The notes below the pieces were generated by a model. The model ran no database searches, was not told where the DNA came from, and was given only the letters and a program-made list of their open reading frames with translations. This document shows, one piece after another, positions 44,725 through 64,000 of a DNA stretch of 64,000 nucleotides. A program made the translations under genes and the position numbers. Origin of the DNA: Gammaproteobacteria bacterium (GTDB taxonomy: Bacteria > Pseudomonadota > Gammaproteobacteria > Steroidobacterales > Steroidobacteraceae); assembly GCA_037200125.1 (NCBI GenBank), contig JBBCGS010000002.1, forward strand, positions 763,488 to 827,487, written 5' to 3'. The first letter of the stretch is position 1. Every line of letters begins with the position of its first letter.

Positions 44725-46073
44725 TGTTCATTACGAAGAAGCACCTGAGTCGGCGCGCGGTTCTGCGCGGAACGGGCGCCCTGCTCGCATTGCCGCTCCT
44801 TGACTCCATGATTCCCGCCGGGACGGCGCTCGCGAAGACCGCCGCCAATCCGGTACCGCGTTTCGTCGCGGTCTTTGCCGCACACGGCTGGGCGACGACG
44901 TGGTGGCACGATGGACGCTGGACCGAGCAGCCCCGGACACCGGGGCGCAACGTCGGGCTCGGCTACATTCACGAACCGCTCGATCCCTACAAGGACATGC
45001 TCACCTTGTGCGCGGGACTGGACGCCACCTCCTCGATGCCCCCGGCGGGCTCGAGCGGTGGCGATCACGCTCGCGCAGCCGCCTCGCTCACGGGCGCGCC
45101 GCCGAAGAGAACCTCCGGTCCCGACATCCACTGCGGCGTGAGCGTCGACCAGGTGGTCGCGCAGAAGTACGGGCAGAACACGTTGCTGCCTTCCATGCAG
45201 CTCGGAATTGAGGATCCGGGCGCCAATACAGGTGTCTGCGGGTGGGGATACAGCTGCGCCTATTCCAACTCCGTATCCTGGGCCGGCCCGAGCAGGCCGC
45301 TCCCGCACGAGGTCAATCCGCTCGTGATCTTCGAGCAGTTGTTCGGAGACGGAGCGACGCCTGAAGAACGCATTGCCCGCCGTCGCGCCGATGCCAGCAT
45401 TCTCGACGCGGTGCTCGAGCGAGTCACCGACCTGAAGAAGACGTTGCCGGGCGATGATCAGTCGAAGCTCAGCGACTACCTGGAAAACGTGCGCGAAGTG
45501 GAGCGCCGGGCGCAGCTCGCCGCCTCGCGGTCGGGCGCGATTGCCGGTATGGAAAAGCCCGAGGGTCAGCCGCAGTCCATCGACGCGCGGATCAAGCTCA
45601 TGTGGGACCTGCAGCACGTCGCCTTCCAGGCCGACATCACGCGCGTGAGCTCCCTGCTCTTCTGCCGCGACGAAAGTGGAACGGTGTATCCGGAGTCGGG
45701 AATCATGACGCCGAATCATCCGGCCTCGCACCACGGCGAAGACCCGGCGCGTCGCAGGGAATGGGCGCAGGTCAATCGTTACCACATGGGCACGCTCGCG
45801 TACTTCCTGAAGAAGCTCAAGGAAACGCCCGACGGCGACGGCACGCTGCTCGACCATTCGTTGCTGCTGTGGACGAGCAACATGGGCAACGCCAACCAGC
45901 ACAGCCACGTGGGCGTCGGCCAGATGCTCGTCGGTGGCGGTGCCGGGCGCCACAAGGCGCGCCTGAATCTCGTCGAGAAAGGTCACACGTCGAACTTTCT
46001 GCTCTCGATTCTTCACATGTACGACATTGAAGCGGAGACCTTCGGCGACAGCGACGGTGTGGTCTCGATCTGA
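44721..46073 (+). CDS. DUF1552-family protein with Tat signal
   Basis: ATGA overlap with the upstream gene. Tat motif SRRAVLRGTGALLALPLL. Canonical partner of DUF1592 proteins. Confidence 0.8.
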   Translation: MMFITKKHLSRRAVLRGTGALLALPLLDSMIPAGTALAKTAANPVPRFVAVFAAHGWATTWWHDGRWTEQPRTPGRNVGLGYIHEPLDPYKDMLTLCAGLDATSSMPPAGSSGGDHARAAASLTGAPPKRTSGPDIHCGVSVDQVVAQKYGQNTLLPSMQLGIEDPGANTGVCGWGYSCAYSNSVSWAGPSRPLPHEVNPLVIFEQLFGDGATPEERIARRRADASILDAVLERVTDLKKTLPGDDQSKLSDYLENVREVERRAQLAASRSGAIAGMEKPEGQPQSIDARIKLMWDLQHVAFQADITRVSSLLFCRDESGTVYPESGIMTPNHPASHHGEDPARRREWAQVNRYHMGTLAYFLKKLKETPDGDGTLLDHSLLLWTSNMGNANQHSHVGVGQMLVGGGAGRHKARLNLVEKGHTSNFLLSILHMYDIEAETFGDSDGVVSI

Positions 46074-47843: not shown

Positions 47844-48605
47844 ATGCTTCTGATTGGAATTGCCGCCGCCGCATTCTGCGCAACGCTGGCCGGCGGCTGG
47901 TTTGCGCTTCGACTCAAGGACAACCTGCATCTCGTGCTGGGATTCAGCGCGGGCGCGGTGGTGGCGGTGTCGTTCTTCGACCTGCTTCCGGAAGCGATGA
48001 GCCTGGGGTTGCCGTTCTATTCGCCCGCCGTGCTGATGTCGTTCACCGCGCTCGGCTTCCTGCTCTATCTCGTTCTGGATCGTGTTCAGCTGCTCCACGG
48101 CGCCCACGATCATGGTCATGATCATGATCATGATCACGGGCACGACCATTCGAAGAACGTGCGCCCGGTTCGACGCGGCGCTCTGGGAGCCGGCAGCCTC
48201 GTCGCGCACAGTTTCCTGGACGGGATCTCCATTGGCCTCGCCTTCCAGACCTCCCAACCGGCCGGAGTGATCGTCGCGGTTGCCGTCGTGGCGCATGACT
48301 TCTCCGACGGCATCAACACCATGAGTGTCGTGCTCAAGGACGGTGGGAATCGCCGGCAAGGCCTGCGCTGGTTGCTGATGGACGCGCTAGCGCCGATTGC
48401 CGGGGTGGCCTCCACGCTTCTCTTCACGCTTCCGGAAAAAGGGTTCGGCCTCGTGCTGGCCCTGTTCGCAGGTTTCTTCCTTTACATCGGCGCGAGCGAT
48501 CTCATTCCGGAAAGCCACCACGCGCACCCGAAATTTCTCACGACTGTCATGACGCTGCTGGGCGCGGGCGCGTTGTACGTCATCATCACGCTGGTGGGGC
48601 GCTAG
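47844..48605 (+). CDS. ZIP-family divalent-metal transporter (ZupT-like) with His-Asp-rich cytoplasmic loop
   Basis: 8 TM. Loop GAHDHGHDHDHDHGHDHSKN. ZIP signature HSFLDGISIGLAF...HDFSDG. Confidence 0.88.
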   Translation: MLLIGIAAAAFCATLAGGWFALRLKDNLHLVLGFSAGAVVAVSFFDLLPEAMSLGLPFYSPAVLMSFTALGFLLYLVLDRVQLLHGAHDHGHDHDHDHGHDHSKNVRPVRRGALGAGSLVAHSFLDGISIGLAFQTSQPAGVIVAVAVVAHDFSDGINTMSVVLKDGGNRRQGLRWLLMDALAPIAGVASTLLFTLPEKGFGLVLALFAGFFLYIGASDLIPESHHAHPKFLTTVMTLLGAGALYVIITLVGR

Positions 48606-49922: not shown

Positions 49923-50324
49923 ATGCCGCTAGCCTCCAGCCCAGTCGTCTCACTCCCGCGGAGCAAAGCCATGACTGCAGGAATCGCATCGCTGCCAGCC
50001 CACGGTTTCGGTAGTGTCGTCATCGTTCGCGCACAGGAGTCGGCCGATACGCTTTCGGCATTTCGCGACCGCCGCTACGCGGTGAACGAGTCCGACTCGC
50101 TCAGCCTGGGGAATTTCGTTCGGGCGGCGCTGCAGACGCCGGTCGAGGTCTACAAGTTCTTCGAATCCGTCCATTTCAGCGGCTCGCATCGGCAAAGCGT
50201 GGAGATGGTTGCCGGCTATGAAGCGGACGTCGCGGCCGTAGACAGCTCCGCACTCGCCCACCTCGCAAGACTCTATCCGGCCCTCTTGGAGAAGGTGCGC
50301 GTGCTGTGCTGGTTGCCCGAGTGA
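49923..50324 (+). pseudogene. Internal fragment of a PhnD/SsuA-like periplasmic substrate-binding protein
   Basis: Aligns with the middle of the paralogue at 63298-64000 (..FSGSHRQSVEMVAGYEADVAAVDSSALAHL.. versus ..VSGSHRRSLEMIAANDADVAAIDCVTFAHL..). It lacks both the N-terminal signal region and the C-terminal about 70 aa. Confidence 0.45.
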
Positions 50325-50512: not shown

Positions 50513-50929
50513 TCAGGGCTTGAGCTGGGTACGAATCTCGCCGCTCTTGTGCTCGGCGCTGTGCACGTTCACGTACAGGTTGCCCGCTTTGAAGCTCTCG
50601 TACTGTGCGTCGGTCAACTTGGAACCTGCCGGCACGGCCCACTCGCTGTCGCCCTTCTTCTCGAGCGTGATCACGGGCGGGCCGTTCTTGCCTGCGGGCG
50701 CCTCGTGAATGTGGGCGGCGACACCGGTGATGCCGGTGGTCTTGATGCTGCCCGAAACGCTCTTGTCATCGCCAATCGTGATCTTGCCGGCGCCCTTGGC
50801 GGCGCTCGTCACGGCCGGCACTTCCTGCTCTCCGGTCAGTGAAACCGCCACGTCCTTGGCGCTCACCGCGGCAACCGCGGCCAGCAGCAACGCGCCCGCG
50901 GTCGCAGCCGCGAACATTCTGTTCTTCAT
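50513..50929 (-). CDS. Secreted CHRD-domain protein
   Basis: ATG at 50929 verified (MKNRMFAAATAGALLLAAVAAVSA). The CHRD-like beta region ends ..LYVNVHSAEHKSGEIRTQL. Confidence 0.72.
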   Translation of the reverse strand: MKNRMFAAATAGALLLAAVAAVSAKDVAVSLTGEQEVPAVTSAAKGAGKITIGDDKSVSGSIKTTGITGVAAHIHEAPAGKNGPPVITLEKKGDSEWAVPAGSKLTDAQYESFKAGNLYVNVHSAEHKSGEIRTQLKP

Positions 50930-51101
50930 ATTGGCCTCTCTCGAATGGGGTAAGGATGCGGGCCGGCCCCACAATGCCGGCCCTCGCGCGGGCACTCTAG
51001 ACCTGAGCGCAGCGTGAACCGAATGAATGTCTGCTATGTCGTCATGCCCCGGCAAGCGAAAACGTGCCGATGCGGCGCGCATGCGCTACCCTCCCGGAGC
51101 G

Positions 51102-52865
51102 ATGCGAAGTCCCACTGCCCTGGCGAGCCCACGCGCTCTGCGTGCCCTCGCTGTTTCGATATTCACCTGGTTGATCCTGACGCCCGCCGCGTGGGCTCAG
51201 CGCGACCCCGTTGAGGCCGAACACGGCATCGTTGCCTCGGCAAGCGTGCTCGCCTCCCGAGTCGGTACGGAAGTTCTCCAGCGCGGCGGAAACGCGGCTG
51301 ACGCCGCCGTCGCAACCGGCCTCGCGCTCGCGGTCACCTACCCTCGAGCGGGCAATATCGGCGGTGGCGGGTTCGCGGTACTGCGGCTCGCCGACGGCAC
51401 CGCCACGTCGATCGACTTCCGCGAAATGGCGCCTTCCGCCGCGACCCGCGACCTTTTCCTGGACGCGAACGGCAATGTCGTACCCGGCCGCTCAACGGTC
51501 GGACATCTCGCGTCCGGCGTGCCGGGCACGGTCGCGGGGCTGCAGCTCCTGTACGAAAAGTACGGTTCGCATCACTTCACGTGGGCTCAACTGGTGGAGC
51601 CTGCGCGCCGTCTGGCTGAAAAAGGCTTTGCCGTGAGTCCCGCGCTCGCACGCGACATGCAGGCCAGTTCCGCATTGCTCGGACGATTCGCAGAGTCCCG
51701 GCGCGTCTTCCTCCGGGACGCTCGTCCATATGAGCCGGGAGAGGTGTTCAAACAGCCCGACCTGGCCGCGACACTCCGGCGAATCGAGCGACAGGGCGCA
51801 CAGGAGTTCTATTCAGGAAAGACCGCGCAGCTCATCGCGCGCGAAATGGCGGCGAACGGCGGCCTCATCACGCTCGCGGATCTGGGCGCGTACCGCGCGG
51901 TGGAGCGGCCCGCGCTACAAGGAAGCTATCGCGGCTACCAGATCGTGACGATGGCCCCGCCGAGCTCCGGCGGCATCGCGCTTCTGCAGATGCTCGGCAT
52001 GCTCGAGCGACACGATGTGGCAAGCCTCGGCCTCAATTCCGCCGCGAAGATCCACCTCTTCACCGAGGTCATGCGCCGTGCGTTCCGCGATCGTGCGCAG
52101 TTCCTGGGCGACCCGGATTTCGTGCGGGTTCCGGTCGCGTCGCTGCTCGACCGCGCTTATCTCGACAAGAGCATGAGCACGTTCGACCGCGCGCACGCCA
52201 CGCCCAACTCCGCCTTGGCGCCCGCGGATCTTCCGCCGCCGGAGTCCACCGAGACAACCCAGTTCTCCATCGTCGATTCACAAGGCAATGCGGTCAGCAT
52301 CACGTACACACTGAACGGCCTGTGGGGCAACGGCGTAACGGTGGGGGGCGCGGGCTTTCTGCTGAACAACGAGATGGACGACTTCACGTCGAAAGTAGGC
52401 GTACGCAATGGATACGGCCTGCTACAGGGCGAATCCAACGCCGTGGGGCCGCGCAAGCGACCGCTCTCCTCCATGACGCCGACGATCGTACTGAAAGACG
52501 GGCAAACCTTCCTCGTGACCGGCAGCCCCGGCGGGCCGACGATCATCAACACCGTGCTGCTGGTGATCACGAACGTCGTCGACTTTCACATGAGCGTTAC
52601 TCAGGCCGTCGACACGCCACGCTTCCATCATCAATGGCAACCGGACGTGATCAATCACGAGCCGTTCTTCACCTCGCCGGACACGGTTGCGTTGCTCGAG
52701 GCGCAGGGCCACAAGCTCGCGACGCGCAAGCTCTACCCGAACTCTCCCGAGGCGGAAGGGCACACGTGGGGTGATGCGGAGTCGATCCTGATCGATCCGC
52801 GAACGAAGCGGCGACTTGGAGCCTCCGATCCGCGCAGCCCGGACTCGGCGGCGGTGGGCTGGTAA
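51102..52865 (+). CDS. ggt: Gamma-glutamyltransferase
   Basis: Signal peptide, then GGT N-terminal domain. The autoprocessing site T in ..SSMTPTIVL.. and the GSPGGPTIINTVL motif are present. Confidence 0.9.
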   Translation: MRSPTALASPRALRALAVSIFTWLILTPAAWAQRDPVEAEHGIVASASVLASRVGTEVLQRGGNAADAAVATGLALAVTYPRAGNIGGGGFAVLRLADGTATSIDFREMAPSAATRDLFLDANGNVVPGRSTVGHLASGVPGTVAGLQLLYEKYGSHHFTWAQLVEPARRLAEKGFAVSPALARDMQASSALLGRFAESRRVFLRDARPYEPGEVFKQPDLAATLRRIERQGAQEFYSGKTAQLIAREMAANGGLITLADLGAYRAVERPALQGSYRGYQIVTMAPPSSGGIALLQMLGMLERHDVASLGLNSAAKIHLFTEVMRRAFRDRAQFLGDPDFVRVPVASLLDRAYLDKSMSTFDRAHATPNSALAPADLPPPESTETTQFSIVDSQGNAVSITYTLNGLWGNGVTVGGAGFLLNNEMDDFTSKVGVRNGYGLLQGESNAVGPRKRPLSSMTPTIVLKDGQTFLVTGSPGGPTIINTVLLVITNVVDFHMSVTQAVDTPRFHHQWQPDVINHEPFFTSPDTVALLEAQGHKLATRKLYPNSPEAEGHTWGDAESILIDPRTKRRLGASDPRSPDSAAVGW

Positions 52866-52962
52866 GCCGAAAAACACCGGGAATCGCCGACTCCGCGCTC
52901 ATTCGAAGTGATTCGAATGGAGCCGCCGAGCCGGCGACTGTCGCGATCGATGCAGTTGCGGA

Positions 52963-55461
52963 TCAGAACCGCGCGTGCAACACCACCCCGACCCAGCGCC
53001 GCTGCCCGATGCCGTCATACGTGACGCGATCCGTTCCCGCGCCGCTCACACTGGTCGTGTACTGCGTGTCGAAGGCATTGCGTGCCAGCAGATCGACCTC
53101 GAACTTGCCCTCCTTGCCAATGAGTCCGACGCCGAGGTCCGTGACGGAATACGCCCCCTGCCAGGCATACCGCGACAACGTGACATCGAAGTTCTGCCGA
53201 GTGCGATACACGTTGGTTCCCCAGACGTGTGCCGTGAACCCCGAGAACACGGGGTGACGGTAATCCACGTCGACGGTGCCGGTGAACTTGGGCGCGGCGA
53301 CCACCGTCTTTCCGGTGTTATCGCACACCACGTTCTTGGCCGTGATGTTGAGCTCCCCCGGGCACGTGCCGGTGCGCCAGTCCGTGTAAATGGCATCGTT
53401 GTACGCGCCGCCGAGGCTGACACTCAGGTCGTGACTGGGACTCCAGGCGATATCGAACTCGAGGCCGCGCGCGCGAATCTCGGGAATGTTGCCCAGGACC
53501 GACTGATAGTAGAGCGTGCCGTCGTTCTGACGCTGAGTGGTCAGCTCATCGACGATACTCGTGACCTGCTGGTAATCCCGGACGCGCGTCTGATAGAGAT
53601 TGACGTTCAGCTGCAACGTGCGATTCAACAGCAGGCTCTTGATACCCGCCTCGATGTCGAACACCTTCTCCGGGTCGACATTCAGCGGTGCTCCGGTGCT
53701 GCTGAACTGAACGGAGCCGGACTTCTCCCCCGAAGCGACCGAGGCGTACAGCAACGAGTCGTCCGTGAGCTGATAGCTCGGGCTCACGAGCCAGCTCAGC
53801 GCGCTGCCTTTCACGGGCACGCCGATTTGCTTGCTGAACGATGCGCCCAGTGTCGTGGTCCGCGTGTTGTTGGCGGCCGCGATCTGCGCGGCGGTCGCAC
53901 CGAGCGTGGCACCCAGGGCGCCCAGGTCATTCAATGCCGAACCGTCGAAGAACGTCGGCAGCTTGGTCGTCGCGTTCGTCTTCTTCTCGTAGGTGTCGCG
54001 TAACCCGAGCGTGAGGGTGGTCTTGTCCGCCAGATGCCAGTTGACCTGGCCAAATCCCGCGTAACTCTTCGTGTCCGGGTTGATGACGGTCGTCGAGTAC
54101 ACGTTGTTCAGCGACGCGTTCAGGAGCTCACGGCCAGCCGCAGTGGCGTAGAGCGTGTTGTAGGACGCGTTGCTCGCGAACCACGCTCCCGCGTCTTGCC
54201 CGTAGAACGTTCGGCTATACGACGCATTCCAGCCGTGCAAATAGAACAGCCCGACCTGATAGTCGAAGCGCTCATTGACGGCCGACGACAGCCGAATCTC
54301 CTCGGACGTCTGGCCGGCATCGATATGGTTGCCGCCCCAGCCCACGTCGTACTTCGTGTAGTCCGAGTCGTTCTTCGCGTCGAAATAGTAGTTACGCACC
54401 GCGCTGATCGAAGTGAGCGTGGCACCGCCCAGATCCCAGTCCACCTGGACGCTGGCGCCATCATTCCGGGTGAGCACCGGCACGATCTGGTTGAGGTCTT
54501 CCTCCGTCCATACACCGACGAGCGGCACGTAGCCGGCGAAGGACGCCCGGTCGAAACGGCTGAGATACGTCGTCTTCGCGGCCGTCGCGCGCGGCGACCC
54601 ATCGTCATACGTCGTGGGCAGGGCCATCGTCGGCTGCGTGTTACTGCGCTCGTTCGACTCCGCATAGTCGAGATCGAGACGCACGGAGAGGTCCGACGAC
54701 GGCTTGTAAAGGAGCTGCACTCGCCCGCCCTCGCGATTCTTCTCGTGCGTGCGGCCACCCTGGGCATTGATGTTGGCGATGTCACCATCCTGCTTGTCGA
54801 CGAATATCGAGGCGCGATAGGCCAGCACGTCGTCGACGATGGCATCGGAGTACGACGCGTTCCCGCTGCGCGTGGTGCGAATGCCTGCGAAGAAGTTGGC
54901 CGAACCTTGCGGAGTGAAGCTCGGCGCGCGGCTGACATAGTTCAGCGCGCCGATGGTGGTGTTCTTGCCGAGCAGGGTTCCCTGCGGACCGCGCAACAGC
55001 TCGACGCGGTCGAGATCCGTGAAGTCCTGGTAGGTCATGCCGGGATGGGTGAGAAACACCCCGTTGACGATGACGCCCATCGACGCCTCGAGCGCATCGT
55101 TGCCCGCCGACTTGCCGATGCCGCGAATCGAGATGCCGGTGCGGCGTGAGTTCGGTGTCGTGGCTTCGAGACCCGGCGCCTTCTTGACGAGATCTTCGAG
55201 AGCAACCACCGCATCGCGCTCGAGTATCGCACCGCCGACCACCGACACCGGGATCGGCACATCCTGCACGGACTCTTCGCGGTTTCGCGAAGTGACCACC
55301 ACCGTCGCGATTTCCGGCCCCGCCGCGTCGGCGCTGTCGGCGGCATCAACCGCCCAGGCGCGCCCGGACGGCAGCAGCAAACCCGCGCCGAGCGCGGTGG
55401 AAATGATTGTAGTACCCAGCAGGTGCGCTGCGGGTTTGCGCTTGCGCGCCTCGATCGTCAT
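52963..55461 (-). CDS. TonB-dependent receptor (832 aa)
   Basis: Signal peptide, plug motifs (QDVPIPVSVVGG, ISIRGIGKS, VELLRGPQGTLLGKNTTIGALNYVS), 22-strand-length barrel and C-terminal ..HARF. Confidence 0.9.
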   Translation of the reverse strand: MTIEARKRKPAAHLLGTTIISTALGAGLLLPSGRAWAVDAADSADAAGPEIATVVVTSRNREESVQDVPIPVSVVGGAILERDAVVALEDLVKKAPGLEATTPNSRRTGISIRGIGKSAGNDALEASMGVIVNGVFLTHPGMTYQDFTDLDRVELLRGPQGTLLGKNTTIGALNYVSRAPSFTPQGSANFFAGIRTTRSGNASYSDAIVDDVLAYRASIFVDKQDGDIANINAQGGRTHEKNREGGRVQLLYKPSSDLSVRLDLDYAESNERSNTQPTMALPTTYDDGSPRATAAKTTYLSRFDRASFAGYVPLVGVWTEEDLNQIVPVLTRNDGASVQVDWDLGGATLTSISAVRNYYFDAKNDSDYTKYDVGWGGNHIDAGQTSEEIRLSSAVNERFDYQVGLFYLHGWNASYSRTFYGQDAGAWFASNASYNTLYATAAGRELLNASLNNVYSTTVINPDTKSYAGFGQVNWHLADKTTLTLGLRDTYEKKTNATTKLPTFFDGSALNDLGALGATLGATAAQIAAANNTRTTTLGASFSKQIGVPVKGSALSWLVSPSYQLTDDSLLYASVASGEKSGSVQFSSTGAPLNVDPEKVFDIEAGIKSLLLNRTLQLNVNLYQTRVRDYQQVTSIVDELTTQRQNDGTLYYQSVLGNIPEIRARGLEFDIAWSPSHDLSVSLGGAYNDAIYTDWRTGTCPGELNITAKNVVCDNTGKTVVAAPKFTGTVDVDYRHPVFSGFTAHVWGTNVYRTRQNFDVTLSRYAWQGAYSVTDLGVGLIGKEGKFEVDLLARNAFDTQYTTSVSGAGTDRVTYDGIGQRRWVGVVLHARF

Positions 55462-55476
55462 TGAGAGACCCTCGAA

Positions 55477-56331
55477 TCAATATGGTTTGGACTTGTCGCC
55501 CTGATATAGATGTTCGACGTCGTGCTCACCCTCGTGGCACTCCATCTCCCACCATTCGTAGTCCGGCTCATCCTTGTGCGCTCGGGAGAAGCTCGAGGCC
55601 AGCGTCCATGGCTGCGTGTACACCGCCGGATCCTCGTATCTCTGTTCCAGTTTGAAGTTGTTGGCGTCGATGAATGTGTAGCGCTCGGTGATGTGCACCT
55701 TGTCGCTCGCGAAATCACCCTCGTTGCTCAGGCGATGCTTCGAGTTGCTGTTCGTCACGTCGACGACGAGGGTGTTGCCCTCCCAATGGCCACGGGAGTC
55801 GGACATCCATAGTTTTATTTTTTCCGGGATGTGGGGACGCCCATCGAGTGGGATCACGCGATACGGATGATTCATGTCGAACACGAACACGACGTAGCCC
55901 GGATACTGGCGAATCTCGAGCTGCGACCAGAACAACGTGCGTGTCACGCCGCCGGGAACGCAGCGCGCTTGCGGGTCGATGTGTTCGGGCTTGACCCACT
56001 TTTCGATGTTCGCCTCGGTTTCCTGCTGTCGCGCGCGGGCCCAGGCCTGATAGGGAATCTGCCCGTCCGCCGGATCGACGACGCGAGAGTTCTCCGGCGG
56101 TGGCAGTTTCTTGCCGGCCTTCAAAGTCTGATCGATCTTTTCGAGCTGCTCGATACCCGGTGCGCGCGCCGGCCGGATCAGCGAGTAGGTGCCTTCGACT
56201 TCAGGTTTGTAGAAGCCGCGCACGTCGGGTTGACCATCCGGCAGATGGGCCGGCTGCCAGTCCGCCGCAGCAGCGGTACTCAGCGCCAGGACGCACACGA
56301 CACCCTGGCAAATTCGAGATGCGGTACTCAT
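55477..56331 (-). CDS. Secreted protein of unknown function, paralogue A (shared core WxSDSRGHWEGxTLVVDVT..)
   Basis: ATG at 56331 verified, signal peptide present. Shares about 40% identity blocks with the next gene (DSRGHWEGNTLVVDVTNSNSKHRLSNEGDFASDKVHITERYTF versus DSRGHWEGDTLVVDVTHFNDQTWFDRAGNFHSDALHVIERYTL). Confidence 0.7.
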   Translation of the reverse strand: MSTASRICQGVVCVLALSTAAAADWQPAHLPDGQPDVRGFYKPEVEGTYSLIRPARAPGIEQLEKIDQTLKAGKKLPPPENSRVVDPADGQIPYQAWARARQQETEANIEKWVKPEHIDPQARCVPGGVTRTLFWSQLEIRQYPGYVVFVFDMNHPYRVIPLDGRPHIPEKIKLWMSDSRGHWEGNTLVVDVTNSNSKHRLSNEGDFASDKVHITERYTFIDANNFKLEQRYEDPAVYTQPWTLASSFSRAHKDEPDYEWWEMECHEGEHDVEHLYQGDKSKPY

Positions 56332-57125
56332 GGATAGAACCGCTCGTAGTCGAACGTGTAGCACTCGTGCTCCAGAAGCTGGAAGTTCTTTTCCTTGTGG
56401 CGATAGAGAACCAGGTTGATGTTCCACGGCCGGGTGAACACCTTCGGATCCTCTATCGTCGCGCGGTACTCGATGTGATCAGGACCGATGAGGGTGTAGC
56501 GCTCGATGACGTGCAATGCGTCGCTGTGGAAGTTGCCGGCGCGGTCGAACCACGTCTGATCGTTGAAGTGGGTCACGTCCACGACCAGCGTGTCACCCTC
56601 CCAATGACCGCGCGAGTCGCCGAGCCACCAATCGATGTGCCCGGGCGGATGCGGCGCTCCGTTCGCATGAACCGTGCGCACGCTGTGCGCGTACTGGTAG
56701 AGGAACGTCAGCTCTTTCTCGGACTGAAAGATCTGAAAAGGCAAAGGCGTGTACGTGATGCGCGGTACGCCCGGCATGAAGCACTTCGCCAGCGGGTCGA
56801 GCTTCGCGCGCTTCGCGAAATTCTGATCACGACGCGCAAGCGCCCACGGCTGGTACGGAATGACGTCGCCTTCGACGATGCCGAGGCCTGCCGGCGCGTC
56901 CTTGCGTGCGGCATGCGGCTCGACGCCCCATTCCGCCGTGCTCAGCGCTTCCCATATGCCGGTGAGATCGGGTTTGCCATCTGTGCCGCGAGGCAAGCCG
57001 GGCCGGGAAGCCGTAGTGGCATCCTGCGCATTTACAACCGTCGCGGGGGCGCCGACTACGACAGCGAATGCAACGCTCGCAAGCAACGTGCGCCCGAAAA
57101 ATAGAGCCGTACGAGATCCGAACAT
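56328..57125 (-). CDS. Secreted protein of unknown function, paralogue B
   Basis: Signal peptide MFGSRTALFFGRTLLASVAFAVVVGAPATVVNAQD. Its stop overlaps the paralogue A start (ATGA). Confidence 0.7.
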   Translation of the reverse strand: MFGSRTALFFGRTLLASVAFAVVVGAPATVVNAQDATTASRPGLPRGTDGKPDLTGIWEALSTAEWGVEPHAARKDAPAGLGIVEGDVIPYQPWALARRDQNFAKRAKLDPLAKCFMPGVPRITYTPLPFQIFQSEKELTFLYQYAHSVRTVHANGAPHPPGHIDWWLGDSRGHWEGDTLVVDVTHFNDQTWFDRAGNFHSDALHVIERYTLIGPDHIEYRATIEDPKVFTRPWNINLVLYRHKEKNFQLLEHECYTFDYERFYP

Positions 57126-57131
57126 ATGCGG

Positions 57132-57536
57132 TTACTGCTTCGGAGCGTCGGCGTTATTGGAGCCCGCGTAGAAGTCCTGGCCGTTGGGCAGCCGGACGGT
57201 CGTCGCCGCCAGGATGGGCTTGCCGCTCTTGGCGAGGTATCCCTTGACGGTGACTTCGCCGCCGATCGGAAAGTCGGTCTTGCGCAGGCCCCTGCGCAGA
57301 AGCGCGTTCGGGCTGCCGAACTCGCAGGCCCAGTTGATTACATTGCCTTTCGGGTCCTTCACGTCGACATGGATCCACCCATGCGGGTTGACCCACTCGG
57401 TGCGTGTGAGCTTGCCCTTCAAGGTAGCGGGCTTGTCGATGTCGTATTCGGCGGCGAAGGCGTGGTGCGAAATCGCCGGCGCGCCAGCCGCGAGCATTGC
57501 GACGACAATTGCGAGGCGCAAGACCTGTTTATTCAT
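57132..57536 (-). CDS. Small secreted protein (about 134 aa) of unknown function
   Basis: Signal peptide MNKQVLRLAIVVAMLAAGAPAISHHAFA. Its stop is 3 nt upstream of paralogue B. Coordinates are from the ORF-track frame; my own base count of this stretch was off by one. Confidence 0.6.
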   Translation of the reverse strand: MNKQVLRLAIVVAMLAAGAPAISHHAFAAEYDIDKPATLKGKLTRTEWVNPHGWIHVDVKDPKGNVINWACEFGSPNALLRRGLRKTDFPIGGEVTVKGYLAKSGKPILAATTVRLPNGQDFYAGSNNADAPKQ

Positions 57537-57969
57537 AACTTCGTTCTCGAAAAAATCACCACGAAAATCGATCGGTTTCGCGCGGACGCGTGGGCGCCTG
57601 CGCAATCCGCGCTCTTCTCTTCCCGAAAATTGCTTTCCTTGTGACCGGACGGTCTACGGATCACCTGACAGGGAAGCCTCGATGCGAGGCTTACGCGTCA
57701 TGCACAGGCGAAGTGTTTCAAACTCAACAGCGGCGAACAAATACGATTTGCGAATCTCCGGATGACGGAGGGACATGAGAGCCGCCAGAGATCACGCTCT
57801 GTTATCTACTCTCGTACATGCCGGTTACACCTCGGGAAACCATCGAACATCCCATTTCGCTATCTAACCGAGTTGTTACGGCGACGTACTCTTACCGTCG
57901 CAACGCGAAGGCATCCAGCGCGATCGATCGCGCCCCGCAAGCCAGGGCGCGATTCAGGAACGGAAAAGA

Positions 57970-59343
57970 CTACAGCTTGCGCGCGACAGCGTCGCCGCCG
58001 GTCCGCGACGCATCGGTCAGCGTTGTCGCCGCGCCGGTTGCTTTCTCCGCGAGCAACTGCTCGATACGCTCGGTGAACTCCTTTCTCAACTGCGCGTGAT
58101 ACTGCCCACTCGCCCGCGACGCGAAACCCGAGTGCACCGTTCGCACCGTGCCGTCACGGCCAACGAACACCGTGGCGGGCCACGTGTTGAGATTCACGAG
58201 CTGCGGCACCTTCTCCCACATCTCAGCGGGCGCGCCCGCGATGAGATACGGGTATTTCACGCCGTATTGCTTCACGAACGCATGCACGCGCACGAGGCTG
58301 TCCTGCTGCTCCGGCTCCTCGAAATCGAGTGCAACGATCGCAAGACCCTTGTCGCGGTACTTCCGATCGAGCTCGACCAGGAGTTGCGCTTCATCATGGC
58401 AATTCGGGCACCAGGTGCCGGTCACGATCGCCAGCACCACCTTGCCCTTGAAATCCTCGTTCGAGACCGGCTTGCCGTTGACGTCCGGGAAGTTGAACGC
58501 AAACCGCTCCTTCGCATCGCGCGCCGTCGTGTGCGTCAGAAAGTTCGCGGGCTCCGGAAAGCCTTTGCTGCGCGCAACTTCCGGGCGGTAGGCGATGTAC
58601 TTGGGCGCCGCATCCCCATAGCGCTCTTCCGAGTAGCCCTTGCTGTCATTCCCCTGCAAGGCGTGGATGATCGCCTCGTTGTGCGCCAGCACGTCGAGCG
58701 TGCCATCACTGCGCGCACTGACTTCGATGACTCCCGGGCGCTGCCCGTCGAAGTGACTCAGCACCCACTTGCCGTCCTTGTACGCACCGCTGTAGGCGCC
58801 CGTATCGCCATCGACGCGCAGAATGGAAGCGGCCACCTCCGCCCCCTTCTGCCGCACGATGAAACGGAACGCCTTCTCGCCCTTGGACGAGGGCGAATCC
58901 AGCGGAATCTCCCACGCACCGTCGATCGACGGAACGTTCCGCGCGGTCGCGGCTGGCGCATCGACGTGACGAACGGCCCGGAAACCATACTTGAGGTGAT
59001 AGCCGGGCCCCGTCAGCTCGGTGTCGCCGATCAGCGCGCCGTCCTTCAGATCCGCGCTGATCGTCGTCAGGTAATGCTCGGCCTTCAGAACCAGTTTGCC
59101 GTCCTTGAACGTCGCATTCGTCGTCGTCTCGTACGGCTGAAAGCCATCGTAGAACGTTCCCTTGAGCGACGAATCGGTTCCGGAGATGTCCAGGCGGAAG
59201 GCCACCGGCGGTCCGTTATCGAGCAGCACCGCATCCCAGCGTCCGCTGATGGCGTCCGGCGAAGCGCCGGACGCACCAAACGCGACAGGTAACGCGCCAC
59301 CCACGAGAATCGCGAGAGTGGTTGTTCTCAGCAGCGTTTTCAT
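57970..59343 (-). CDS. TlpA/ResA-family thioredoxin-fold protein fused to a duplicated approximately 2 x 130-aa N-terminal beta-rich domain (paralogue 1)
   Basis: Signal peptide. Two similar modules (GRWDAVLLDNGPPVAFRLDISG..KGTFYDGF.. and GAWEIPLDSPSSKGEKAFRFIV..GAYKDGKWVLSHFDG..) precede a thioredoxin domain with WCPNC. Confidence 0.8.
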   Translation of the reverse strand: MKTLLRTTTLAILVGGALPVAFGASGASPDAISGRWDAVLLDNGPPVAFRLDISGTDSSLKGTFYDGFQPYETTTNATFKDGKLVLKAEHYLTTISADLKDGALIGDTELTGPGYHLKYGFRAVRHVDAPAATARNVPSIDGAWEIPLDSPSSKGEKAFRFIVRQKGAEVAASILRVDGDTGAYSGAYKDGKWVLSHFDGQRPGVIEVSARSDGTLDVLAHNEAIIHALQGNDSKGYSEERYGDAAPKYIAYRPEVARSKGFPEPANFLTHTTARDAKERFAFNFPDVNGKPVSNEDFKGKVVLAIVTGTWCPNCHDEAQLLVELDRKYRDKGLAIVALDFEEPEQQDSLVRVHAFVKQYGVKYPYLIAGAPAEMWEKVPQLVNLNTWPATVFVGRDGTVRTVHSGFASRASGQYHAQLRKEFTERIEQLLAEKATGAATTLTDASRTGGDAVARKL

Positions 59344-59374
59344 TGTCAGGATTCCTTGTCCTGCTGGGCAACGC

Positions 59375-60742
59375 TCAGCGAGCGTCGGCAACGAGCGCCG
59401 AAGAGCCAGCGTTCGCTTCCGTTGCGGACGTCAACTGCGCGGGCGCCTTCTCGGCGAGCAACTGCTCGATGCGGCCCGAGAACTCCTTCTTCAGCTGGGC
59501 ATGGAACTCACCGCTCGCGGGGGACGCGAAACCCGCATGCACCGCACGGACCGTGCCGTCACGTCCAACGAACACTGTCGCGGGCCACGTGTTGAGATTC
59601 ACGAGCTGCGGCACCTTCTCCCACATCTCCGCCGGCGCGCCGGCGATGAGGTACGGATACTTCACCCCATACTGCTTCACGAACGCGTGCACGCGGGTGA
59701 GCGAGTCCTGCTGCTCGGCTTCCTCGAAGTCCAACGCGACGATGGCCAGGCCCTTCTCGCGATACTTCTTGTCGAGCTGCACGAGGTATTGCGCCTCATC
59801 GTGGCAATTCGGGCACCAGGTACCGGTCACGATCGCAACGATCACTTTGCCTTTGAACTGCGGATCGTCGCTCGAGACCGGCTTGCCATTCACATCCTTG
59901 AAGTTGAAGGCGAACTTCTCGTTCGGGTCACGCGCCGTGGTGTGCGTCAGATAGTTGGCGGGCTCCGGGAAACCCTTCGCGCGCGCGACTTCCGTGCGGT
60001 AGGCAACGAGCTTGGAGGCATAACGACCGTCCGGAGCCGATTCGCCATACGCCTTTTCGCCGCCGCTCTTGGTCTCGGCCGTCTGCTGCGGGCGGTCCAC
60101 CCGCTGCTGAATTTCCAGTGTGCCCTCCTTCCCCGGCGTGACGACGATGACACCCGGACGTGAGCCGTCGAAGTGACTCAGCACCCACTTGCCGTCCTTG
60201 AACGTTCCGCTGTACGCGCCTGTGTCGCCATCGACGCGCAGGATCGAGGCCGCGACCTCGGCACCCTTCTGGTCGACGATGAGGCGGAAGGCCTTCTCGC
60301 CTTTCGAAGATGGCGCCTCGAGCGGGATCTCCCACGAACCCGCGATCGCGGGCGCGTTGACCGCGGCGGGCGGCGCATCCACATGAGGCGCGGCAACGAA
60401 TTTGTAGTCGGCGCGATTCTCGCGGTTCTGCGCGACGACGGTTCCGACGAGCTTGCCGTCTTCGAATTTCGCCGAGATCGTCGTGAGATAGTGCTCGATG
60501 TTCAGCGTGAGCTGGCCATCCTTGAAGCTCGCGCTCGTGGTGTCTTCGTACGGGCGGAAGCCGTCGTACAGCGTGCCCTTGAGCGTCGGCCCCGATCCGG
60601 AGATATCGAGCCGGAACGGAATGACGTTGTCGCCCCGGACGAGCTGGGCATCCCAGCGGCCGTCGAGCTTGTCGGCGGCCATTGCCGCCGCGCTGCCGGA
60701 TGCAATGACTGCAAGCCCGGCGATCTTCAAGAAGGTTCTCAT
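59375..60742 (-). CDS. TlpA/ResA-family thioredoxin-fold fusion protein (paralogue 2)
   Basis: Same architecture as paralogue 1 and about 60% identical (GRWDAQLVRGDNVIPFRLDISGSGPTLKGTLYDGF...WCPNCHDEAQYLVQLDKKYREKGLAIVALDFEE). Start at MRTFLKIAGLAVIASGSAAAMA. Confidence 0.8.
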   Translation of the reverse strand: MRTFLKIAGLAVIASGSAAAMAADKLDGRWDAQLVRGDNVIPFRLDISGSGPTLKGTLYDGFRPYEDTTSASFKDGQLTLNIEHYLTTISAKFEDGKLVGTVVAQNRENRADYKFVAAPHVDAPPAAVNAPAIAGSWEIPLEAPSSKGEKAFRLIVDQKGAEVAASILRVDGDTGAYSGTFKDGKWVLSHFDGSRPGVIVVTPGKEGTLEIQQRVDRPQQTAETKSGGEKAYGESAPDGRYASKLVAYRTEVARAKGFPEPANYLTHTTARDPNEKFAFNFKDVNGKPVSSDDPQFKGKVIVAIVTGTWCPNCHDEAQYLVQLDKKYREKGLAIVALDFEEAEQQDSLTRVHAFVKQYGVKYPYLIAGAPAEMWEKVPQLVNLNTWPATVFVGRDGTVRAVHAGFASPASGEFHAQLKKEFSGRIEQLLAEKAPAQLTSATEANAGSSALVADAR

Positions 60743-62127
60743 TTCCGCGTTCCTCTCTGCTGCAAATGGTGTGATTGCGCGTAGTCCAGCCATTCCTGCG
60801 GAAGACCGGGCTTGGTCTCGAGCAGGATTTCGAGAATCGCCTGACGGTCCTGGGCCGACAGCGAATCGAAATCGGCGTCTTTGTCCCGCCCGCTCAGGAT
60901 CTCGAGCAGGCGGTGATACACGTAGGTCTTCGACGGTTCGGGCAGCTCGTCGAAGGCGTCCGAGTAGATGAGATAGCTGCACGGGTAGCGAAAGATCCGC
61001 GTGCTCAGGTCGAAGTCCCGTAGCGACCGGCCTTTCGAGTCGCGCGGCCCGCGTGCGGCGAACTCTCGCGCGAAGGCGGACGACGCGATGACACTCTTCG
61101 CATCGAGCGACGGAAGCTCCGTTTCGTTCGCGAACAGCAGATAGCGCAGCAGCTGTTCGGCGGGTCGCTCGAACTGCTTGCGGGTCGCTTCAGGCAGTGG
61201 CGCATCCGCGGACACCTGCGCAACCGCGCCCTCCGCCGAACCCGCCGCGGCGGATTGACCGGCCAACGCATGCAGCGCGATCCGCGTCTTGTAGTTGGTG
61301 AGCGTGACGAGGTTGTGCATCTGGGTCTGGTGCCCGAGCACCAGAAGCGCAACCGCATCGCTTCCCGGCGTGAGATACGCGGAAGCGTCGAAAGGCTTCT
61401 CCAGCGTCGTGAGCTTCACGTCCTTCCCCGAGGCCCCGTCGGGTGCGGTCGCGTTCGCCAGCGTGCCGTCCGCGAGCTTGCCGGTGACATACCAACCGCC
61501 CCAGCGCTGGTTGAACGGACTGTCCTGGTCCGTGATGTAAGTCGACGCGCCGGTCACCAGCGTGCCGGTGCCGGTCGGCTGTACCGATCGCACCAGAACT
61601 CCGGGAATCCCGCGCGTACCCGCGGCGATGTGGCACTGGGTGCAGTCGAGCTCGGCTCGCTCGAAGGCGGGCTTGTCGGCCTTCTGCTCGTGCAGCAGGT
61701 AAAAGATGGCGCCCTGGCGCGCGTCGAAGGAAACGATCTCGATCTCCTTGCCCTCGTGCACCGAGCCCACGTACACGTCGTCGTTGTAATAGAGCGCGCG
61801 CGGATGCTCGGGCGAGATCTTGGGATATTGAAAGCTGGTCTTCGAGAAGACGAGCGTCTGCGAGCTGACGGGAACATCCAGCAGCTTCAGCACGGACTTC
61901 AGATACCCGTGATCCTTCTCGTCATAGACGAGATCCGCCTTGCCCTGCTCCAGCTTCTTCCGCGCCTTCGCGACCGGATCGTTGATGTCGTCGGAGCGGT
62001 AGAAGATCGGCGCGTCGCTGTAGGGGATGTAACCCTGGTTCTTCACGGCGATCTGCGCAAACGCCGCCGGCAACGTGGCGAATGAGAGCGCGAGCGCCAA
62101 CCCGAGCCGCCTGAGTTTCAGGTTCAT
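60739..62127 (-). CDS. Secreted mono-haem c-type cytochrome-domain protein (about 460 aa) of unknown function
   Basis: Signal peptide MNLKLRRLGLALALSFATLPAAFAQ. Single CxxCH (CTQCH). Its stop overlaps the start of TlpA paralogue 2. Confidence 0.65.
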   Translation of the reverse strand: MNLKLRRLGLALALSFATLPAAFAQIAVKNQGYIPYSDAPIFYRSDDINDPVAKARKKLEQGKADLVYDEKDHGYLKSVLKLLDVPVSSQTLVFSKTSFQYPKISPEHPRALYYNDDVYVGSVHEGKEIEIVSFDARQGAIFYLLHEQKADKPAFERAELDCTQCHIAAGTRGIPGVLVRSVQPTGTGTLVTGASTYITDQDSPFNQRWGGWYVTGKLADGTLANATAPDGASGKDVKLTTLEKPFDASAYLTPGSDAVALLVLGHQTQMHNLVTLTNYKTRIALHALAGQSAAAGSAEGAVAQVSADAPLPEATRKQFERPAEQLLRYLLFANETELPSLDAKSVIASSAFAREFAARGPRDSKGRSLRDFDLSTRIFRYPCSYLIYSDAFDELPEPSKTYVYHRLLEILSGRDKDADFDSLSAQDRQAILEILLETKPGLPQEWLDYAQSHHLQQRGTRK

Positions 62128-62549
62128 CGCCACTTCCCCTCGAACGCCGGCGGGCTCGTCTGCCCCTGATGACAACTGCCGCAGGTCACCGGCACGGCAT
62201 AGCGGGCGTCGCCTCCGAGTTGGGCCAGATACTTCTCGTTGATGTCCGTGAGCATGGAAATCATGATCCGTGCGCTCTGCTTCCTCGGGTTCTCGTCGGA
62301 GGCGTAGTCGAGCTTCAGTGTCTGCGGGTTCTCCACATGACAGTGGCTACACTTGACGCCGAGATCCTGTTCGAAGCGCTTCATGAGCTTGCCGAGCTTC
62401 GCCGCCGAAAGATCCTTGGGCAGCACCTGGAGGTTCACCGGCTTCGACCGGGGAATCTCCTCGCTGCCCTCTTCCGAATACGCGGCCACGGCTGCACCGA
62501 ACGAAAGACAACTCAACGCTGCGAGAACAACCCCGCGATAGACAGTCAT
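62124..62549 (-). CDS. Small dihaem c-type cytochrome (about 140 aa)
   Basis: Signal peptide MTVYRGVVLAALSCLSFGAAVAA and two CxxCH motifs (CSHCH, CGSCH). ATGA overlap with the downstream gene. First gene of the minus-strand cluster. Confidence 0.7.
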   Translation of the reverse strand: MTVYRGVVLAALSCLSFGAAVAAYSEEGSEEIPRSKPVNLQVLPKDLSAAKLGKLMKRFEQDLGVKCSHCHVENPQTLKLDYASDENPRKQSARIMISMLTDINEKYLAQLGGDARYAVPVTCGSCHQGQTSPPAFEGKWR

Positions 62550-62705
62550 AGGCCCGCGATACTCGATGTCCTGACGCAGCGGCAATGTATGCAGCCGCGA
62601 CCGCACCGAACAAGACACAAATGACCTGAAACAGTGCTTTCGCTCATGACGCTTTCTCATGTGGCGAATCCGATTCGCGATGTGACCACAATGTCACTGC
62701 CCCGC

Positions 62706-63167
62706 TCAGAATGTGTATGCGCCTTTCACGTAGTAATAACCGCCGCTGATACCGAGAGGGCCGTTCGCATACTGTCCCGCCGCGAAGGGGAATCCCGCCT
62801 TTTGATACGCCGCCAGCAGGTTCGCGTTCACCTTGCCGGGGTACCGGTTGAACACGTTCTCCGCGCCCACGGTGAGCTTCAGCGATTTCAGCACCTCATA
62901 CCCGAGATCGATGTTCGTGACCGGAATGACGCCTGAACGCGTGGTGTAGAACGTGACGGTGCTTCCCGTGGTGGCGCCGTTGTCGCCCTGAACGACCTGT
63001 GTCGTGTCGTGCGCGATCTCGTGCAGGCCGATCGTGATCGGGCCGTGCGCCCACTGCGCGCCAAGATTGATGTTGTAGTTCGGCTGCGCGTCGCTCAGGC
63101 CCGAGAACGCGGTGGGATCGAGAACGGTGAGGCCCTGTGCCGCAAGCTGCGGCGGTGTGGCGCGCAC
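62706..63167 (-). pseudogene. C-terminal fragment (about 150 aa) of a TonB-dependent receptor
   Basis: Ends with the canonical barrel terminus ..LTVGAENVFNRYPG...YYVKGAYTF, but there is no plug or N-terminal barrel upstream. The next gene starts 130 bp away. Confidence 0.5.
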
Positions 63168-63297
63168 GCCCGGAACAGTCGTCTTGTTGTAGTTGGCCTT
63201 GAGAGACCAGTCGACTCCGCCGAGCCGATCGAAATCGGTCAGGACGTGGACCGCCGTCGTCGTCGCCGGACGCTGGTTGGGCCTGATCTAGGGAAAG

Positions 63298-64000
63298 CTA
63301 ATGAACGTGAGGGTAGCGTAGCTCTACGGCGTCCCGTTCGAGCTTCAATACCCGGCTCAGCGTCGCATCCGGAGCCAGATCGATCCCGTCGAGAAGCAGG
63401 CGTTGCCGCACAGGCGTCAACGCGGAATCGACGAAGACCGCGGCGAGCGCCGAACGAAGTTTAGCGAGCGTCCCCGCGCCGATCGTACGCGCGGTCACCA
63501 ACGGCAGGCACGGGCTCGGCGGCGTCCAGCCCAGCACTCGGATTTTGCGAGTCAGGGGAAGATCGATCCTCTGCAGGTGCGCGAACGTCACGCAGTCGAT
63601 TGCGGCGACATCGGCGTCGTTCGCCGCGATCATCTCGAGGCTGCGCCGATGCGAGCCGCTCACGACCACCGAATCGAAGAACCGCGCGCCCGCCGCGAGC
63701 GGCGCCAGCGCCGCGCGCAACAGGTTCATGCCGCTATTGGAGTCGAGCTCGTTGACCACACAGCGCCGCCCTCGCATGCCGGCGAGGGATCCGACCGGAT
63801 CCTCGGCGCGCACGACTATGGCGCTCTTATAAAGGATGCCCACGCAGCCTGGCGCCGAATAGCGCGGCGTGGCAACGATGATCAGATGCTCGTCGAACGA
63901 CTTCGCGAGCGGATACTCGCACGCTTGCGCGAGCAACAATTCGGGGTGACGCCAGACCGCCCGATGATCCAGATCACGGGTCAGGCTGCGTGGCACGTTT
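63298..64000 (-). CDS. PhnD/SsuA/transferrin-family periplasmic substrate-binding protein, N-terminus beyond window end
   Basis: ..VVSGSHRRSLEMIAANDADVAAIDCVTFAHL.. is the PhnD-like core. The ORF reaches the window edge with no upstream stop. Confidence 0.65.
   Translation of the reverse strand, partial: NVPRSLTRDLDHRAVWRHPELLLAQACEYPLAKSFDEHLIIVATPRYSAPGCVGILYKSAIVVRAEDPVGSLAGMRGRRCVVNELDSNSGMNLLRAALAPLAAGARFFDSVVVSGSHRRSLEMIAANDADVAAIDCVTFAHLQRIDLPLTRKIRVLGWTPPSPCLPLVTARTIGAGTLAKLRSALAAVFVDSALTPVRQRLLLDGIDLAPDATLSRVLKLERDAVELRYPHVH

Follow-up and report, generated by a model that had tools for sequence, protein, structure and literature searches.

A composite locus of cytochromes, thioredoxin-domain fusions, calycin-like proteins and a TonB-dependent receptor, possibly part of a sulfur-limitation response

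Introduction

In Pseudomonas, both scavenging genes and the antioxidants LsfA and Ohr are induced under sulfate starvation (PMC12581299). The induction of LsfA by sulfate starvation has also been described along with the ats/sft sulfate-ester cluster, which encodes the TonB-dependent receptor SftP (PMC3596284), and a desulfurase-encapsulin operon is induced by sulfur starvation (PMC10836720). Here we compare with these and other described systems a locus of eight consecutive minus-strand open reading frames (ORFs) at 52963-62549 of a 64,000-nucleotide stretch of gammaproteobacterial DNA (contig JBBCGS010000002.1), the whole of which is referred to as the window. The eight genes make up two modules that are separately conserved: module A consists of cytS, cyt478 and two TlpA fusions (TlpA1 and TlpA2), and module B of DUF6152, cal1, cal2 and a TonB-dependent receptor (TBDR-B). 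We tentatively put forward, at somewhat less than an even chance, that the region is a composite of two periplasmic modules which belong to, or have been recruited into, a sulfur-limitation response, forming a scavenging system with haem-thiol chemistry.

The Pseudomonas atsACBR-sftR-atsK-sftP cluster resembles the system considered here in that a TonB-dependent receptor is encoded with a LysR-type regulator and with periplasmic and transport proteins for an alternative sulfur source (PMC3596284). Clusters of the ats/sft type also share with it sulfur-poor proteins and the co-occurrence of an LsfA-type 1-Cys peroxiredoxin and Sbp/CysP. The window cluster, however, is without a sulfatase, sulfonatase, monooxygenase or ABC importer; it has instead cytochromes, fusion proteins with a CPNC motif, calycins and DUF6152, and its regulation here is putative.

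In Sox systems the SoxXA cytochromes, which are encoded with the periplasmic thioredoxins SoxS and SoxW, act on protein-bound sulfur, and electrons pass from thiol or sulfur to haem. The joint encoding of periplasmic c-type cytochromes and thioredoxin-fold proteins is common to Sox and to the window cluster, but the context of the latter is assimilatory (CysB/Sbp) rather than energy-yielding, and no SoxYZ, SoxB, SoxXA or SoxCD was found among the Pfam and NCBIfam matches of the window genes or of the recurrent neighbours that were scanned. TlpA, ResA and CcmG are secreted proteins of thioredoxin fold with a WCxxC motif and give the best sequence matches to the window fusions; unlike them, these fusions fall below the family cut-offs, have an invariant CPNC, carry an extra duplicated N-terminal domain of ~270 amino acids (aa) and are always paired with cyt478. 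As to DsbD and ScsB, relatives of the window cluster encode a stand-alone DsbD_N-like protein with a C(x4-5)CxPP motif between cytS and cyt478, but no transmembrane DsbD or CcdA is linked and the DsbD_N gene is absent from the window. Compared with known calycins (fatty-acid-binding proteins, lipocalins and nitrobindins), cal1 has no sequence-family membership, bears a 90-residue N-terminal extension, and is secreted, in tandem and receptor-linked. The mitochondrial Mia40-Erv1-cytochrome c pathway is a thiol-disulfide relay which delivers electrons to cytochrome c and sets a precedent for the thiol-to-cytochrome c direction proposed below; its proteins are not related to those considered here, where flavoproteins are not consistently linked, and the resemblance is purely functional.

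The components of the window cluster are thus of known broad kinds (receptor, c-type cytochromes, thioredoxin fold, calycin fold), four of them belonging to no characterised family. Literature searches joining sulfur starvation with receptor, cytochrome and thioredoxin returned nothing on this system, and no match to the combination was found in the family and structure libraries searched, in agreement with an earlier reading of the DNA from its letters and ORFs (the sequence-only reading), which did not recognise it as a described system. The best reading is of a sulfur-limitation scavenging locus with a TonB-dependent receptor that is not a member of the ats/sft, Sox or TlpA/ResA systems.

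Results

Conservation and linkage of the two modules

Two sets of loci were recovered: 80 genome loci anchored on cal1, from Acidobacteriota, Gemmatimonadota, Gammaproteobacteria, Methylobacter and Derxia lacustris, and 80 metagenome loci anchored on cyt478. Every ORF of 168 loci (cited below by L numbers) was clustered and the representatives were scanned against Pfam and NCBIfam.

The order of module A is strongly conserved. A TlpA fusion lies immediately 3' of cyt478 in all 47 loci with at least 1.5 kb of downstream sequence, cytS is upstream of cyt478 in 16 of the 20 loci whose upstream sequence extends to 7 kb or more, and two tandem TlpA fusions are also present in L008, L170 and L171. 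For module B, the DUF6152-cal1-cal2 trio, including the cal1-cal2 tandem, occurs in most of the 80 genome loci. A receptor related to TBDR-B adjoins the trio in the proteobacterial loci (50% identity in L079, 41% in L086 and 35% in L045, from Derxia lacustris), and pairs of DUF6644 membrane proteins, together with receptors, often accompany module B in relatives.

Since DUF6152 and a calycin are found, in several arrangements, within 14 of the 24 cyt478 loci with at least 10 kb of flank, the linkage of the two halves is conserved while their arrangement is flexible, which fits two transcription units working together. In L171, a related metagenome-assembled genome (MAG), cytS, cyt478 and two TlpA fusions are combined with a receptor, two calycins and DUF6152, as in the window. 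The check by genome context that accompanied the sequence-only reading has therefore come out in favour of linkage. The closest relative, L090, whose cyt478 is 90% identical, has a different calycin pair and an intact receptor upstream of cytS. The plasmid collection searched contained no cyt478, and yielded only distant calycins (25-30% identity) on sphingomonad plasmids, adjoining DUF6644 and DUF6152. One such plasmid locus, on the Novosphingobium humi plasmid NZ_CP117419.1 (L169, 5113-9088), comprises two DUF6644 genes, a 431-aa hypothetical protein, a calycin of 29% identity and DUF6152; this set adjoins a TetR regulator and ETF/beta-oxidation genes, so that the DUF6644-calycin-DUF6152 triad stands here in a non-sulfur context.

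Sulfur-assimilation genes and sulfur-poor composition

A sulfur-assimilation marker (a CysB-family LysR, Sbp/CysP, a 1-Cys peroxiredoxin, MetN, an M19 dipeptidase or CysK) is present in 17 of the 25 long cyt478 loci, compared with 4 of the 68 cal1-anchored loci. A CysB-like LysR gene, found in eight of these 25 loci, lies either immediately upstream of the receptor-cytS unit or in divergent orientation to it, and the Sbp/CysP protein scores 410 bits, above its NCBIfam cut-off. A 1-Cys peroxiredoxin adjoins module A in 5/25, an M19 dipeptidase occurs in 4/25, and the stand-alone DsbD_N-like protein is encoded in 16/25. A desulfurase-encapsulin operon lies 6 kb from module B in L003.

Proteins made in sulfur starvation are known to lose sulfur amino acids, and the contents of methionine (Met) and cysteine (Cys) were compared as medians after removal of the first 30 residues. 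In 12 of 17 normal-length members, the receptors of module A contain no Met and no Cys over ~800-875 residues. The median Met+Cys is 0% for both the CHRD and the Sbp families, 0.74-1.02% for the TlpA fusions (the CxxC plus one or two Met) and 1.16-1.43% for cyt478, against 2.56% for 805 other ORFs of the same loci. The difference is also seen within families: calycins adjoining module A have 1.36% Met+Cys versus 2.78% elsewhere (p 5e-8), and acidobacterial receptors adjoining it 0.33% versus 1.66% (p 3e-6). The Met/Cys depletion that marks sulfate-starvation proteins is therefore present in module A, in CHRD and in the cognate receptors.

The same trend holds in the window, where Met+Cys is 0.69% in TlpA1 and TlpA2, 0.91% in cyt478, 0.90% in DUF6152 and 0% in the CHRD protein, whose mature part has neither residue. 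In Met+Cys the proteins of module B fall below the medians of their families, cal1 having 1.29% against 2.28%. As a separate observation, receptors in the window genome are sulfur-poor in general, that encoded at 26017-27975 (+) being an example. One plausible role offered in the sequence-only reading, reductive processing of an imported metal complex, gained no specific support; the recurrent neighbours and the composition point to a response to sulfur limitation.

Proteins of module A

Both cytochromes proposed from the sequence were upheld. cytS scores 110.5 bits against NCBIfam NF033196 (cut-off 70), which places it in that family, and matches Pfam CytoC_RC at 1.5e-10; it has a signal-peptide-like N-terminus and two CxxCH motifs, kept in 41/41 homologues, at which haem attachment is predicted. 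A fusion of cytS with DsbD_N in L134, taken up as a Rosetta-stone candidate, was rejected as an ORF-calling artefact, an over-extended frame without CxxCH. The single CxxCH of cyt478 is CTQCH, kept in 84 of 85 homologues. Its conservation is high (at least 7,895 matching clusters, and 61-100% identity among the best 120 matches), and yet it has no Pfam or NCBIfam family, no PDB relative and no fold match.

TlpA1 and TlpA2, of 455-457 aa, are 66% identical to each other, and both have a Redoxin/AhpC-TSA domain at about residues 280-425 in Pfam (for TlpA1, Redoxin 53.9 bits and AhpC-TSA 48.6 bits over residues 278-407). With 49-54 bits against Redoxin (cut-off 26.6) they belong to the thioredoxin superfamily, and WCPNC is kept in 66/66 homologues. 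ResA, CcmG and TlpA are the best PDB matches of the thioredoxin domain, but the more specific cut-offs are missed by a wide margin: 39-42 bits against 230 for TlpA (NF047696), 62-67 against 170 for ResA (NF002854) and 34-35 against 123 for DsbE (TIGR00385). As judged by these profiles, the fusions are members of the broader Redoxin/AhpC-TSA superfamily only.

Their N-terminal region of ~270 aa has no Pfam, NCBIfam or PDB match. It consists of two related halves (hhalign probability 80.8%, E 1.3e-5, 58 columns), so that the description of WCPNC thioredoxin proteins with a duplicated N-terminal domain is supported. The same domain had been called unique and is instead widespread: 822 related clusters passed the search, and most of the full-length ones among the best 120 are fused to Redoxin. 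A relationship between this domain and the calycins was considered and discarded (hhalign probability <1%).

Proteins of module B

DUF6152 scores 101.5 bits against Pfam PF19649 (gathering threshold 27) and is thus a member of that family. An HH motif comes right after the signal peptide in 47/53 members examined, and an NPH motif lies within the columns that are at least 80% conserved. No paper in the literature searched mentions DUF6152 or DUF6644. In L053 (11281-12429), and also in L041, L028 and L049, all of Vicinamibacterales type, a 382-aa protein with an N-terminal c_type_nonphoto cytochrome domain adjoins DUF6152; module B thus has a PufC-like cytochrome beside it even in loci that lack module A. 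Pyrroloquinoline quinone dehydrogenase neighbours of module B were considered as a lanthanide clue and dropped, the clue being a similarity of motifs only.

The paralogues cal1 and cal2 (38% identity, E 4e-38) had been assigned to an unknown family on account of their DSRGHWEG core. This stands in so far as there is no described sequence family, with no Pfam or NCBIfam match at E<=0.01 and no PDB sequence match with a profile; it does not stand for the fold. The AlphaFold model of cal1 (35 sequences, pLDDT 79.8) has a recognisable calycin barrel, like that of fatty-acid-binding proteins (FABP), which as modelled can be superposed on known members. The family is large, with 16,676 representative clusters at E<=1e-3 and 9,114 at E<=1e-10, and has many invariant Arg, His, Asp and Trp and two near-invariant Cys. 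The invariant Arg, His and Asp of cal1 suggest an anionic ligand or catalysis. On a Methylococcales-like contig (L003, 10001-10840, P0014) a cal1 orthologue that has lost both near-invariant Cys is flanked by a rhodanese gene on one side and a CysK/CysE/SrpI-like encapsulin operon on the other.

TBDR-B has the features of a TonB-dependent receptor, with Pfam matches to the Plug (54.4 bits) and the barrel (101.7 bits) and a C-terminus ending in ...HARF. No substrate-specific NCBIfam family matches it above cut-off.

Receptor remnant, gene layout and flanking genes

Relatives of module A normally have a receptor of their own, of proteobacterial or acidobacterial type, upstream of cytS. In the window only a remnant of it (TBDR-A) is left, which contains neither Met nor Cys and aligns at 53% identity (E 2e-61) with residues 696-874 of the L125 receptor, a protein of 874 aa encoded upstream of cytS. 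The view of the eight genes as a single relay tied to the downstream receptor has to be given up accordingly. Upstream, the frame is interrupted by many stop codons, and the remnant directly adjoins the stop of a PhnD-like ORF (63298-63996, -), a junction which suggests a deletion or rearrangement, or possibly a misassembly. This ORF and a paralogue, 49923-50324 (+), both of the Phosphonate-bd family, flank the whole region in opposite orientation; the latter looks like a fragment.

The coordinates are collected in Table 1. The ORF list agrees with the eight minus-strand genes described earlier, and the annotation of a gammaproteobacterial MAG includes an identical protein (locus tags WDO68_07040 and WDO68_07060). 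Stop and start overlap by 4 nt, as had been noted, between cytS and cyt478 (62124/62127), cyt478 and TlpA1 (60739/60742) and cal1 and cal2 (56328/56331). With ATG 59343 taken as the start of TlpA2, 31 nt separate it from TlpA1; cal2 and TBDR-B are separated by 15 nt. The gap between DUF6152 and cal1, given before as 3 nt at 57132, is in fact 6 nt, the stop being TAA 57132-57134 and the start of cal1 ATG 57125. All eight products have a signal-peptide-like N-terminus, as claimed, according to a crude script (basic residues, hydrophobic core, small-x-small site) rather than SignalP.

Table 1. Features of the locus and its immediate flanks, with positions in the window
Feature	Position	Strand	Description
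TBDR-A remnant	62709..63287	-	Last 193 codons (C-terminal) of the receptor normally found upstream of cytS; probably a pseudogene
cytS	62124..62549	-	Small secreted dihaem c-type cytochrome (predicted), non-photosynthetic PufC-like family
cyt478	60739..62127	-	462-aa secreted monohaem (CTQCH) protein (predicted), undescribed family
TlpA1	59375..60742	-	Secreted; duplicated beta-rich N-terminal domain (~270 aa) fused to a TlpA/ResA-like WCPNC thioredoxin domain
TlpA2	57970..59343	-	Tandem paralogue of TlpA1; same domain matches
Inter-module spacer	57606..57969	.	364 nt, lower GC; palindrome and GC-rich hairpin
DUF6152	57132..57536	-	Small secreted protein; predicted mature N-terminus His-His, NPH motif
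cal1	56328..57125	-	Secreted protein, modelled as a calycin/FABP-like barrel; DSRGHWEG family
cal2	55477..56331	-	cal1 paralogue with ~26-aa insertion
TBDR-B	52963..55461	-	TonB-dependent receptor of the DUF6152-cal1-cal2 unit
Terminator-like hairpin and T-run	52876..52894	-	69 nt beyond the TBDR-B stop; consensus scan only
Gamma-glutamyltransferase (GGT)	51027..52865	+	Between CHRD and TBDR-B, opposite strand; TIGR00066
CHRD-domain secreted protein	50513..50932	-	Pfam CHRD 101.8 bits; probable member of the cluster neighbourhood

The spacer between the modules, which is of lower GC (0.558-0.582), does contain the reported perfect 16-bp palindrome, GCGCGATCGATCGCGC, at 57918-57933. A GC-rich hairpin directly follows the TlpA2 stop. 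With the separate conservation of the two halves this bears out the suggestion of two transcription units, which the window cluster probably comprises. The stability of the spacer RNA fold is not significant (z -1.76), and a sigma-70 promoter scan gave zero sites. The terminator search was a consensus scan only, in which the number of terminator-like sites was not above that in shuffled sequence. A riboswitch or other RNA in the spacer or 5' of cytS was rejected, there being no Rfam match at E<=1 over 52000-64000.

The GGT between CHRD and TBDR-B scores 553.6 bits against TIGR00066 (cut-off 357.85); it may be functionally linked, with glutathione as a sulfur source, the linkage being read from its position. 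A CHRD gene is found in 9/25 long cyt478 loci. Further away, over 42193-46073 (+), 46073-47770 (+) and 47844-48605 (+), a planctomycete-type cytochrome protein (PSCyt1 with DUF1592/1588/1585/1587/1595) is paired with a DUF1552 (HXXSHH) protein, after which come an ankyrin-repeat protein of 565 aa and a ZIP transporter. The ankyrin-repeat family also occurs near DUF6152-calycin loci elsewhere (4 loci, and L002).

Discussion

On the reading favoured here, module A would be a haem-thiol redox unit acting on a sulfur-containing substrate brought in by a TonB-dependent receptor, and module B a more general receptor-associated unit for the binding or handling of periplasmic ligands. Regulation in the source organism, the substrate, and haem-thiol electron transfer with its direction are what we infer in the scheme that follows. 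A CysB-type regulator would turn the genes on under sulfur limitation. An organosulfur compound whose size or scarcity rules out entry by porins, for instance a disulfide-, polysulfide- or glutathione-type compound, would then enter through the receptor and be held by the calycins and DUF6152. The CPNC domains would perform thiol-disulfide chemistry with the two cytochromes as redox partners, and the products would supply periplasmic GGT or dipeptidase, or uptake by Sbp/CysP. The cytochromes are favoured as partners of the thioredoxin domains because cytochromes almost always recur beside module A in the clustered loci, while a gene for membrane DsbD or CcdA does not. Speculatively, glutathione-type disulfides are attractive as the substrate since GGT is adjacent and M19 dipeptidases are found in relatives. 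A more specific proposal, that this is an unrecognised scavenging pathway in which organic sulfur is taken up via a sulfur-free receptor and processed by a haem-to-thiol relay (cytS, cyt478 and the CPNC fusions) with calycin and DUF6152 carriers, is a doubtful one.

Several observations weigh against a role in sulfur limitation. The cal1-anchored loci usually lie away from sulfur genes (4/68). The LysR protein has CysB as its best NCBIfam match, yet its 372.8 bits are below the equivalog cut-off of 436. Neither a CysB-like regulator nor an Sbp gene was detectable across the 64-kb window, where only GGT adjoins the cluster, and sulfur control of the window cluster is for this reason extrapolated from relatives. 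A low sulfur content is a general trait of outer-membrane and periplasmic proteins; the objection that envelope proteins simply have this composition is removed by the within-family controls. The sulfur-poverty of TBDR-B (0.63%) was nonetheless dropped as evidence, since an unrelated window receptor (26017-27975, +) is equally poor, with 3 Met and 0 Cys in 628 mature residues (0.48%). As to mechanism, the structure prediction of cyt478 was of low confidence and gave no reliable model, and the substrate named above is a speculative candidate only. The potentials of haem c are normally far above those of thiol/disulfide couples, which makes a reductive relay from cytochrome to thioredoxin thermodynamically unattractive; on these grounds electrons would more plausibly pass from thiol to haem than from haem to thiol.

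Also to be counted on that side is the relation between the modules. Module A is present in only 1/80 cal1-anchored loci, and the calycins near module A elsewhere form a divergent subfamily of 33-35% identity. Because module B of the cal1 type is rarely near sulfur genes or module A, and the linked calycins are divergent, the adjacency in the window may be secondary. Carried further, these facts lead to the alternative in which the halves are unrelated in the window genome, module A being a decaying operon without a receptor which merely abuts an independent DUF6152-cal1-cal2-TBDR-B operon. This accounts for the 364-nt spacer with its hairpin, for the reduction of TBDR-A to a remnant, and for the different calycin pair and intact receptor of L090. 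We nevertheless consider it unlikely: the four module A ORFs are all intact, 14/24 long loci have DUF6152 and calycin genes along with module A, L171 combines the components of both modules, and module B in the window is sulfur-poorer than its family medians.

In a second alternative, of low probability, the locus serves redox housekeeping or antioxidant defence of the envelope. The TlpA fusions would be ResA/CcmG-type reductases maturing both cytochromes, or thiol peroxidases, cyt478 would be of peroxidase type, and the genes would be co-induced with LsfA and Ohr under sulfur limitation. ResA, CcmG/DsbE and TlpA are indeed the closest solved relatives of the thioredoxin domain, the Pfam matches are to AhpC-TSA and Redoxin, a 1-Cys peroxiredoxin lies beside module A in five loci, OsmC/MarR genes are found in L172, and antioxidants are induced by sulfur starvation in Pseudomonas (PMC12581299). 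Against this, the motif is a thioredoxin-type WCxxC in 66/66 rather than the T-x-x-C of peroxiredoxins, the ResA and TlpA cut-offs are widely missed (62-67 vs 170 and 39-42 vs 230), general Ccm systems normally need no private reductase, and the conserved receptor, the DUF6152 and calycin partners and the extra 270-aa domain would be left unexplained.

TlpA serves the assembly of copper centres (Sco, CuA). Acquisition of metal or haem, in which the receptor would import a metal chelate or haem, DUF6152 and nitrobindin- or haemophore-like calycins would bind it, the cytochromes would reduce it and the TlpA-like domains would keep metal-site Cys reduced, is improbable as well: siderophore and haemin receptors are the best, sub-threshold, NCBIfam matches of TBDR-B, DUF6152 has its predicted mature N-terminal HH and conserved NPH, the calycin models have a nitrobindin-like fold, and some loci have HbpS-like, PepSY_TM, cytochrome c'-like and ZIP genes in their vicinity, but genes for Fur or for iron, copper or haem uptake do not recur in the clustering, where sulfur-assimilation genes do (17/25), the receptor, CHRD and TlpA fusions have lost nearly all Met and Cys, which is a signature of sulfur economy and not of metal, and the His-His is a sequence pattern only.

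The components of this candidate scavenging locus are widely distributed. They occur, with conserved gene order, in Acidobacteriota, Gemmatimonadota, Alpha- and Gammaproteobacteria and Verrucomicrobiota, and their composition clearly marks them as expressed under sulfur limitation. At least four of them (cyt478, the calycin family, the N-terminal domain of the TlpA fusions, and DUF6152, with DUF6644 in relatives) have no assigned function. A receptor of ~850 residues entirely without Met and Cys provides a simple, reusable predictor. Sulfur in soil is mostly organically bound and its mobilisation by bacteria is only partly understood, and the cluster is a candidate for a missing route. If the coupling of haem and thiol is true, it would be a new kind of periplasmic redox chemistry in TonB-dependent nutrient uptake, and a bacterial counterpart of the thiol-to-cytochrome c relays that serves nutrient acquisition across soil and freshwater phyla.

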